Source: a virus. From it: a DNA stretch of 32,000 bases. How positions within the stretch are numbered: position 1 is the stretch's first letter; every line of letters starts with the position of its first letter. Shown here piece after piece: positions 26,777 through 27,272 of the stretch. Position numbers and translations under genes: made by a program. The stretch spans positions 1-32,000 of IMG/VR virus record IMGVR_UViG_3300045988_123082; one strand, given 5' to 3'. A model generated the notes under the pieces. It ran no database searches, was not told the origin of the DNA, and saw nothing but the letters and a program-made list of their open reading frames with translations.

Positions 26777-26804
26777 TTGACATATGCATGTATATGTTTA
26801 TAAT
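26777..26804 (+). promoter_or_regulatory. near-consensus sigma-A promoter of the plus-strand cassette
   Basis: TTGACA (26777-26782), 16 nt, TATAAT (26799-26804). The transcript would begin with a 5' hairpin GTGTAAGC-(10 nt)-GCTTACAC (26809-26834). Confidence 0.65.
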
Positions 26805-26903
26805 GTAAGTGTAAGCCAAATAAAAAGCTTACACAAAAGACACGGGTCAAACTTTATAGAGTTGACACGGTTAAACCCCGCATAATAGAAAGCGGTGGTA
26901 TTT

Positions 26904-27029
26904 ATGAAAACAAAAATATCCATAAATATCAAATTAGAATTTGAAATTGATATAGCGCTTATAAAGTCACAAATAAAAAGGCTTGTTATTAGTGCTATAT
27001 CACAAATAACAAACCTAATTAATTAACCA
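26904..27029 (+). CDS. possible 41-aa leader peptide ORF
   Basis: ATG 26904 lies 4 nt after GGTGGT. Translation is MKTKISINIKLEFEIDIALIKSQIKRLVISAISQITNLIN. Its 3' third is overlapped by the antisense small RNA. The frame is not conserved in repeat copy 2. Confidence 0.25.
26975..27028 (-). ncRNA. candidate ~54-nt small RNA, copy 1 (cis-antisense to the cassette leader)
   Basis: Predicted RNA: GGUUAAUUAAUUA, then stem GGUUUGUUAUUUGUG / loop AUAUAG / CACUAAUAACAAGCC, then U5. It starts ~7 nt after a consensus -10. Confidence 0.6.
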
Positions 27030-27034
27030 TTTAT

Positions 27035-27063
27035 ATTATAAACCGTGTCTTTCACTTTTTCAA
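27035..27063 (-). promoter_or_regulatory. promoter of small RNA copy 1
   Basis: Minus-strand TTGAAA (27063-27058), 17 nt, TATAAT (27040-27035). Confidence 0.65.
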
Positions 27064-27272
27064 GTTTAGGAGGTGTAAACATTGTAAGAAAAAAAAGTGG
27101 TTCTTTCAATCAAATAGAATATATAAAAGAATTTAATAAAGCCAATTATAGAAAATACGAAATTAGAGTAAGAAAAGAAAATATAGACCTTATAAAATGG
27201 CTTGATAAACAACCAAGTAAAACCGCTTATATAATAGATTTGATTGAAAAAGATATGAACAAAAACAAATAA
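27045..27272 (+). CDS. ribbon-helix-helix (Arc/CopG-like) DNA-binding protein
   Basis: ..ANYRKYEIRVRKENIDLIKWLDKQPSKTAYIIDLIEKDM.. fits the beta-strand, helix, helix pattern of RHH repressors. TAGGAGG lies at 27067-27073. The true start is uncertain (GTG 27045 has no RBS; only ATT 27081 follows the RBS in frame). Confidence 0.6.
   Translation: MSFTFSSLGGVNIVRKKSGSFNQIEYIKEFNKANYRKYEIRVRKENIDLIKWLDKQPSKTAYIIDLIEKDMNKNK

Follow-up and report, generated by a model that had tools for sequence, protein, structure and literature searches.

A probable countertranscript RNA gene in the leader of a variable accessory operon from uncultured Clostridia-type phages

Introduction

When the minus strand within the leader of a plus-strand phage operon carries what looks like a strong promoter, followed almost at once by what looks like a terminator, is this a gene for a small RNA directed against the operon, or is it something else? 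The question is raised by a locus in the virus record IMGVR_UViG_3300045988_123082 of the IMG/VR database, of which positions 1 to 32,000 (32,000 nucleotides (nt), called "the window" throughout) were analysed. An original prediction for this locus held that the unit makes a cis-antisense RNA, and that this RNA controls the operon in addition to a ribbon-helix-helix (RHH) protein encoded within it.

To judge from comparison with related phages, the unit is, on balance, probably a real, constitutively transcribed gene for a countertranscript of about 54 nt, situated in the conserved head of a variable accessory operon. The best-supported reading is one in which countertranscript and protein autorepressor would together form a dual negative-control module, the operon being probably an early, anti-defence one in a lineage of uncultured Clostridia-type phages. 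In silico support comes from the conservation of every element, from coding selection on a small gene that the RNA overlaps, from structure and covariation in the leader, and from co-variation of operator and protein.

The RNA unit and its conservation

The unit consists of two features:

27063-27035, minus strand: countertranscript promoter TTGAAA-17-TATAAT (-35 at 27063-27058, -10 at 27040-27035), read directly and found by a promoter scan
26975-27028, minus strand: predicted countertranscript of ~54 nt, with a 13-nt AU-rich tail, a 15-bp hairpin and U5

Direct reading found the promoter, the G that follows it, the tail, the hairpin and the U-run where the original prediction had placed them, and its distances to the TAGGAGG (27067-27073) ahead of the next gene are likewise correct. 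The predicted start is the G at 27028, 7 nt past the -10; the tail GGUUAAUUAAUUA (27028-27016) leads into a hairpin at 27015-26980, GGUUUGUUAUUUGUG/AUAUAG/CACUAAUAACAAGCC, which has 15 pairs, including one G.U, plus one U.U mismatch, and U5 occupies 26979-26975. The 54-nt RNA folds at -16.9 kcal/mol, as against -6.6 +/- 2.5 for shuffled sequences (z = -4.1), and a 59-nt version at -18.7 (z = -4.9). The promoter scored 11 out of 12 in the scan, and there are two exact matches to TTGAAA-N17-TATAAT in the 32-kb window where shuffles lead one to expect 0.01, the second being part of a duplicate of the whole unit. A simple terminator scan did not list the countertranscript hairpin, presumably because of its internal mismatch. 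Rfam gave no match at the gathering threshold, and nothing over 26975-27063 or 29230-29318 at E <= 5, while a search of the window for stretches of at least 13 nt complementary to the leader or to the RNA found no other site except the second copy.

Related loci were collected in two ways. A protein-based search of viral and metagenome contigs gave 31 (L001-L031), of which L031, a weak partial match, was set aside, and a search anchored on the neighbouring HNH gene added L036-L114. Loci with this operon head number 36, 30 of them from the protein search and six from the HNH-anchored search; 35 were read (L021 is counted but unread), the leaders of L020-L030 (L021 again apart) being inspected for the small open reading frame (ORF) alone. 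The regulator protein encoded just downstream has 33 close relatives only, all metagenomic; megablast and blastn searches of the region against annotated phage records gave no match, and a scan of 185,579 species-representative genomes found no related locus. In all close loci the order terL-terS-HNH is found on one strand, with the cassette on the opposite one, and terL is 99-100% identical to that of the window. The nearest isolated phages are the Butyrivibrio phages Arawn and Idris (46% identity in terL), so that the host is probably a Clostridia-type gut bacterium.

In leader alignments the two ends are near-invariant, comprising the plus promoter and a 5' stem-loop on one side, and the Shine-Dalgarno (SD) sequence and gene start on the other, whereas the middle exists in several versions: A (that of the window), A', A'', B with several variants, B', and one more that is seen in L086. 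Identity between A and B is 44-46% in the middle, as against 97-100% in the flanks. As the original prediction implies, the unit is found in homologous loci, for all those read (35 of 36) keep the minus-strand -35, 17-nt spacer, -10, tail, hairpin and U5-8, while the sequence between is replaced. The -35 is TTGAAA, TTGACT or TTGAAT; the spacer is exactly 17 nt and unrelated in sequence between versions; the -10 is TATAAT, with the G 7 nt later; and every allele retains an unpaired 5' tail of 8-14 nt, the hairpin sequence differing. L100 represents a distant phage (HNH 68% identical, regulator ~43% identical) and has the same layout in unrelated sequence, its TTGACA-17-TAATAT being followed by a 53-nt RNA with tail, hairpin and U7.

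The predicted RNAs are 53-61 nt long and comprise nine distinct alleles, with z from -2.7 to -6.9. MAFFT and RNAalifold gave no consensus structure for them, because the arms are too divergent to align, and the alleles were folded one by one instead. Folding and covariation across homologues, proposed originally as a check, gave folds for the single alleles and a leader helix in four versions (described in the next section), but no consensus for the RNA itself. That the unit is kept while its sequence is replaced favours a real gene.

The structured leader and the gene within it

The leader, made from the plus-strand operon promoter, contains the following:

26809-26834, plus strand: 5' stem-loop GUGUAAGC-loop-GCUUACAC, present in every minimum-energy fold
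26836-26845, plus strand: 5' strand of the closing helix, AAAGACACGG, whose partner in the minimum-energy fold is 27043-27052
27043-27052, plus strand: 3' strand of the closing helix, CCGUGUCUUU, within the spacer of the minus-strand promoter
26893-26931, plus strand: hairpin UGGUAUUUAUG : CAUAAAUAUCA of the predicted folds, holding the small-gene SD (GGUGGU) and AUG
26904-27026, plus strand: small gene of 40 codons, MKTKISINIKLEFEIDIALIKSQIKRLVISAISQITNLIN, a conserved ORF in the 35 loci whose leaders were read

It is not plain non-coding sequence: the RNA overlaps this conserved 40-codon gene, being antisense to codons 25-40 and the stop (that is, the last 16 codons). The small ORF has 40 codons in types A, A' and A'', 36-37 in B and B', and 33 in L100. 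In type B it is under strong purifying selection: the proportions of synonymous (pS) and non-synonymous (pN) differences are 0.40 and 0.023 between L009 and L023, and, over the first 15 codons, 0.77 and 0.027 between L009 and L017. In type A the frame, length and stop are kept. The L100 peptide, ...KIRIIFEIDIKKGLVSLYIAIN, has FEIDI in common with type A and DIKKG in common with type B, which suggests that the small peptides of all types belong to a single family; the peptide has three close relatives only among 5.8 billion proteins.

Folded from the predicted start site to the regulator gene, four leader types give z-scores of -8.6, -6.5, -6.4 and -6.4 and one architecture, to which the leaders of L086 and L100 also conform: a 5' stem-loop, then a long-range helix closing a domain of ~210 nt (out of a leader of ~270 nt), with the small-gene SD and AUG paired inside that domain. 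Among the aligned loci the stem of the 5' stem-loop is invariant and the loop variable; L100 has a stem-loop at the same place with a different stem, GUAAGG/CCUUAC. The closing helix occurs in four versions:

Type A: 5' strand AAAGACACGG, 3' strand CCGTGTCTTT
Type B: 5' strand AAACAAACGGCGCT, 3' strand AGCGCCGTTTGTTT
L086: 5' strand AAAAGCGGTGCT, 3' strand AGCACCGCTTTT
L100: 5' strand AAGGGAGA...CGATG, 3' strand CATCG...TCTCCCTT

Because MAFFT sets types A and B one column out of register, this helix was tested by shuffling for the longest complementary run rather than by a formal count of covarying pairs. Shuffles of the 3' region reached the observed run in 21 of 2000 cases for A, 0 of 2000 for B and 1 of 2000 for L086; for the L100 helix alone the ungapped shuffle test was not significant. 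Within type B, reading the alignment by eye gave two single changes from G-C to G.U, and two others that break one same position. The SD/AUG hairpin shows compensatory changes between A and A' (U-A to G-C, sequences again read by eye), and in types B and B' the small-gene SD is paired with an upstream anti-SD instead.

A terminator scan found no plus-strand terminator in the leader (26805-27080), and the plus-strand version of the RNA hairpin is followed by UAAUUAAUUAA, with no U-run. Attenuation of the pIP501/pT181 type, which had been cited as a precedent, would therefore have nothing to act on.

As a separate observation, a 14-nt string, GGCGCTTACTCATA, occurs twice in type B leaders (L009 etc.), at leader positions ~35-50 and ~205-220; one copy adjoins the closing helix at its 5' strand, and one is in the hairpin that the RNA would target. 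In type B the RNA could accordingly have two sites at which to pair, or the leader could switch between two folds.

The operon promoter and the 63-residue regulator

The protein side of the proposed control involves three features:

26777-26804, plus strand: operon promoter TTGACA-16-TATAAT
26780-26797, plus strand: 18-bp palindrome ACATATGCA|TGTATATGT in the -35/-10 spacer, the likely operator of the 63-residue protein, unique in the window
27081-27272, plus strand: regulator gene, 63 residues, with SD AGGAGG at 27068-27073, ATT start at 27081 and stop at 27270-27272

The operon promoter was claimed at this position originally and scored 12 out of 12 in the scan. Five palindrome types were found, each tied to one type of the 63-residue protein, and leader types assort freely among them (palindrome variants are seen also in L014-L016, L018, L029, L046, L047, L053, L062 and L086). 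Such co-variation of operator and protein supports DNA binding by the 63-residue protein and repression of the plus promoter by it, and to that extent upholds the original proposal of a protein repressor.

The start of the regulator has to be moved. In type B loci an in-frame TAG stands just before the regulator SD, and no ATG, GTG or TTG comes after that TAG; ATT, 7 nt past AGGAGG, is the only start at a proper distance, and the equivalent codon is ATA in L018, L029, L046 and L062 and ATG in L100. From the TAG, the lack of ATG, GTG and TTG after it and the ATG of L100, the start therefore appears to be ATT 27081 and not GTG 27045, and the RNA promoter becomes intergenic. Gene callers choose an upstream GTG that has no SD, and the conserved "N-terminus" MSFTFSSLGGVN of the database proteins is simply the SD and the RNA promoter read as protein. 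It may be noted separately that a TTG-TAA in the +1 frame, with start and stop in immediate succession, overlaps the ATT start codon (window 27082-27098), and that a conserved A8 run comes after it, which in the predicted type A fold pairs with the U-run opposite the -35 of the RNA.

As to what kind of protein this is, Pfam gave nothing for the regulator nor for 101 family members, profile searches of the PDB gave no match, two AlphaFold2 models found none with Foldseek, and neither did hhalign against CopG and Arc. The AlphaFold2 model built with 101 sequences (predicted local distance difference test, pLDDT, 91.6) places helices at residues 11-22, 35-43 and 47-61, with an extended stretch (23-34) between the first two; this modelled order is compatible with an RHH protein bearing an extra N-terminal helix, the fold being unproven. 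Thus the RHH identity originally assigned fits as regards predicted element order and finds no match in these four kinds of search. A full HMMER search gave 1,723 remote relatives; of the 150 listed, the majority have 55-80 residues. They have in common a motif like ...YI(I/V)xLIxxDM, and no Pfam model covers the family. Two distant homologues, P0033 and P0034, lie in rows of same-strand genes without a leader, and are uninformative regarding the RNA.

How the module might work, and what weighs against it

The order of the operon head would then be a promoter with palindromic operator, the 5' stem-loop, the closed RNA domain, and the regulator translated from a weak ATT start; inside the predicted domain would lie the gene of 33-40 codons with its paired SD and AUG, and, convergent with it, the RNA gene over its 3' end. 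On entry into a repressor-free cell the plus promoter would fire, and the 63-residue protein would then shut it off. Using its tail and hairpin, the countertranscript would base-pair with positions 26975-27028 of the leader domain, and the 54-bp duplex so formed would reduce small-gene expression; the co-transcribed operon would be reduced as well if the leader were cleaved or refolded, and head-on transcription from the two promoters may add interference. No ribosome-binding site lies under the RNA, so that the way in which pairing would lead to lower expression is one that we infer, with duplex cleavage, refolding and head-on transcription as candidates. Of the cis-antisense plus RHH scheme as originally drawn, a gene-like RNA unit and a protein repressor are supported, the RHH fold being unproven.

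Several points speak against this dual-control module and should be set beside the evidence for it. Not only does the RNA lie over no ribosome-binding site, but its 5' end is 40 nt upstream of the regulator SD, so that a direct translational block of the pMV158 type is not evident, and its overlap with the small gene is confined to the 3' part. The small gene in its type A form, which is that of the window, is under weak or no purifying selection (pN/pS 0.4-0.7), and the window compared with L004 has a non-synonymous excess. All loci but one come from a single closely related phage lineage with some 4-5 sequence types, and independent comparisons are therefore few. Orphan units are found at the end of a minus-strand gene cluster in phages without a complementary leader (L063, L043, L092 and L095), meaning that the unit can persist without a target in cis, for instance as a plain terminator. 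Lastly, synthesis of the RNA, its pairing and its effect are all predictions from sequence.

Could the small gene be a toxin?

If the small gene encoded a toxin, silenced by its occluded SD and by the antisense RNA as antitoxin, the locus would be a type I toxin-antitoxin module that stabilises the prophage or aborts infection, with the downstream operon as no more than a passenger on its transcript. We consider this rather unlikely, although the locus resembles 3'-overlapping Bacillus and Clostridioides systems: as in the Firmicutes modules bsrG/SR4, txpA/RatA, par RNAI/RNAII and the prophage systems of C. difficile (PMC6563280), the RNA gene converges on the small gene and overlaps its 3' end, the mRNA has a strong fold in which SD and AUG are paired, the location is in a prophage, and the duplexes are likely RNase III substrates. 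To this may be added that the protein is small and conserved, that the prophage is one of a Firmicutes-type host and has diversified alleles, and that an orphan, antitoxin-like copy is present.

It is the peptide that fits badly. The usual type I toxin is hydrophobic, shorter than 60 residues and has a transmembrane domain (PMC6563280), whereas the peptides here are cationic (net charge +3 to +7) and amphipathic, and have no hydrophobic stretch of transmembrane length, the longest run without K, R, D, E, Q, N or H being 3-9 residues. Nor is there a plus-strand terminator past the small gene, which is therefore the first cistron of a long operon; the "toxin" mRNA would run on into an operon of six genes. 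The RNA is also much shorter than most such antitoxins, which measure 100-220 nt. On the hydropathy scale of Kyte and Doolittle the peptides reach maxima of 0.1-1.8 over 15 residues, the corresponding values for the toxins Fst and BsrG being 2.5-2.7.

The second copy: terminator, insulator or trans-acting gene?

The duplicate mentioned above, which the original prediction did not include, is situated at the other end of the cassette:

29229-29318, minus strand: copy 2 of the unit (promoter 29318-29290, RNA ~29283-29229)

Between U-run and -35, both included, copy 1 spans 89 nt (26975-27063), and it is matched at 29230-29318 by a stretch of the same orientation and 96.6% identity. The -35 of copy 2 is formed by the last codons of a minus-strand gene for a 106-residue protein (29307-29627), the rest lying directly past the stop of that gene, and no small ORF lies opposite. 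As copy 2 is ~85 nt beyond the terminator of the plus-strand operon, the two copies bracket the cassette. Sister phages in which the head is replaced by a gene of helix-turn-helix (HTH) appearance (see the next section) have type A or A' orphans, and copy 2 can mismatch the leader of its own phage, as in L016 (A' leader, type A orphan) and L008 (B leader, A' orphan). Copy-2 units may be terminators of the minus-strand cluster, trans-acting RNA genes, or both.

These facts lend something to an explanation in which the unit is no more than a device for insulation or interference, whose RNA does not act by pairing. Minus-strand transcription would end at the hairpin and U-run, collisions with polymerases from the strong opposing promoter would weaken the plus promoter, and copy 2 would be the terminator of the minus-strand gene cluster. 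We regard this as clearly unlikely. The position of copy 2 directly past the stop of the last minus-strand gene, its occurrence also in phages without a complementary target, the facing promoters with start sites ~217 bp apart, and the lack of any ribosome-binding site under the RNA are all as it would have them. However, a terminator alone needs no consensus promoter 20 nt upstream, and hexamers and spacing are kept in four unrelated contexts; copy 1 has no minus-strand gene upstream to terminate, the flanking cassette being on the plus strand. Furthermore, every allele has its 8-14-nt single-stranded 5' tail, which is a feature of pairing RNAs (PMC4485353).

A still more doubtful idea, which we offer as an improbable speculation, is that the RNA/target and repressor/operator pairs might be the allelic specificity determinants of an incompatibility system between phages. 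Its central component would be the orphan RNA genes (copy 2 of the window and those of sister phages without a matching leader), whose RNA, working in trans, would shut down the early anti-defence operon of a related superinfecting phage with a matching leader. The mismatched orphans of L016 and L008, the orphans of the HTH-head phages, and leader middles that diverge despite 99-100% identity in terL are compatible with this reading; if true, it would amount to an RNA-based heteroimmunity among otherwise near-identical gut phages.

The operon and its surroundings

Downstream of the regulator, and on the other side of the leader, lie:

27362-29152, plus strand: cargo genes with products of 172 (or 157), 49, 90, 81 and 195 residues, including the operon terminator at 29121-29145 with its T-run
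26608-26624, minus strand: intrinsic terminator GGACGUGGUGAGCGUCC (stem GGACG/CGUCC) followed by U8, found by a terminator scan

Searches of Pfam and PHROGs with the cargo gave no function and no Rep-like gene. In sister phages with the HTH head the second cassette gene encodes the anti-restriction protein ArdA (PF07275, E = 4e-35), and in the window the ArdA slot is occupied by an acidic protein of 157-172 residues from an unknown family. The cassette, we infer, serves as an anti-defence operon of early or accessory type; it adjoins the likely cos end of the genome, and an operon of this type in this position would favour a burst of expression followed by shut-off. Some cassettes (L001, L005) have an extra gene for a 185-residue protein and one for a DUF6782-like metallopeptidase.

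In about half of the sister phages the whole head is replaced by a divergent gene with a different promoter (L041, at 2477-3679, and 25 other loci of cluster 1), the product of which reads by eye like an XRE-type HTH protein, with no hit in Pfam. These phages lack the leader, the small gene and copy 1, although their HNH proteins are 92-100% identical to that of the window, and the unit therefore belongs to this head rather than to the late operon. The same comparison led to the rejection of a further, very improbable candidate role, as a late promoter of the lambda PR'/6S kind (a short terminated transcript with antiterminator read-through into HNH-terS-terL), for, even though the unit points towards the late genes on their own strand and has a strong promoter with an immediate terminator, the leader copy is absent, with the HTH gene in its stead, from sister phages with HNH proteins up to 100% identical, the 26624-26608 terminator and ~970 nt including an opposing consensus promoter stand between unit and HNH, and copy 2 would read antisense through the whole cassette.

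The terminator at 26608-26624 would stop read-through from the countertranscript promoter before the late genes. No minus-strand gene lies upstream of it in the window, and in L041, the only HTH-head phage scanned, its counterpart is at 3872-3888, past the HTH gene's own terminator.

Some other features of the window may be recorded for completeness. A 32-nt inverted repeat (25937-25968 and 26012-26043, arms 88% complementary, 43 nt between them) spans the HNH start codon; it gave only weak, microRNA-precursor-like matches in Rfam, and could be related to cos or to translational control. Beyond copy 2, four unannotated minus-strand genes (29307-31040) have products of 106, 106, 139 and 214 residues that are related in pairs, the two 106-residue proteins being ~30-36% identical and the other two ~56-74% over some 120 residues; the N-terminus of the 214-residue protein matches a major-tail-protein PHROG (phrog_88, E = 1e-14). 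At the far end of the structural and lysis region a tRNA-Asp (GUC) is found on the minus strand at 728-803, which could be phage-encoded or mark an attachment site.

Comparison with known systems

On comparison the unit is not assigned to any of the families considered, the closest design being that of pMV158 with CopG and RNAII. There an operon is under both a small transcriptional repressor and a very small countertranscript (PMC4485353), as would be the case here. RNAII has 48 nt, made up of a 17-nt tail, a single terminator hairpin and a U-tail (PMC4485353), and the predicted RNA here has the same parts, an AU-rich single-stranded tail of 13 nt within 54 nt; in both cases the RNA gene is flanked by the first small gene and by the one that follows it in the operon. 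The differences are considerable, however. The replicon is a phage, no replication initiator was found in its operon, the putative repressor is encoded after the RNA gene and not before it, and its RHH fold is unproven here. Moreover, RNAII abuts the translation signals of repB, whereas the present RNA covers the final part of the first gene and leaves a gap of 40 nt to the next SD.

Among phages, the immI region of P22 (Pant-arc-ant) has sar, a countertranscript of ~69 nt covering the ribosome-binding site of ant. It resembles the present locus as a phage accessory operon outside the main immunity region with a strong promoter, a small shut-off repressor and an internal countertranscript. It differs in that the RNA here covers the end of a mini-gene rather than an ant-type ribosome-binding site, no antirepressor gene was recognised in the window's operon, and the regulator has no homology to Arc that hhalign could detect. 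In position the RNA is also like lambda OOP, which starts at a promoter of its own, stops at its own terminator and is complementary to the last part of cII. Each would be a short, self-contained RNA directed against the end of a small gene that forms part of a longer phage transcript, though phage type and protein are different and no link to a lysis-lysogeny decision is apparent here.

In CopA/tap with CopB of R1, Inc RNA/repY of ColIb-P9 and c4/icd/ant of P1, a leader ORF and an antisense RNA (in R1 also a repressor) set downstream expression; the RNA blocks the ribosome-binding site of the leader peptide, and the stop codon of the peptide lies beside the following start. Here, too, a structured leader contains a short ORF and is faced by a predicted antisense RNA, and in those systems antisense alleles define specificity groups. 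In the present locus, unlike these, the overlap is at the 3' end and the stop is 55 nt before the next start.

Biological meaning

Control by a countertranscript together with a repressor is textbook material for small plasmids and for a few model coliphages. If the dual-control module is correctly read, this plasmid-type logic would now be found in uncultured gut phages of the Clostridia type, at the head of an operon that in sister phages carries ArdA, and with additional layers: the conserved mini-protein, the closed leader domain with its covariation, and translation from the non-canonical start codon ATT. The 63-residue regulator belongs to an uncurated family with some 1,700 remote relatives. 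The locus, with five operator/repressor pairs, at least nine RNA alleles and four versions of the closing helix in shuffled combinations across near-identical genomes, would supply ready-made sets of orthogonal regulators, and its allele series would make a testable case of how regulatory specificity diversifies in phages.

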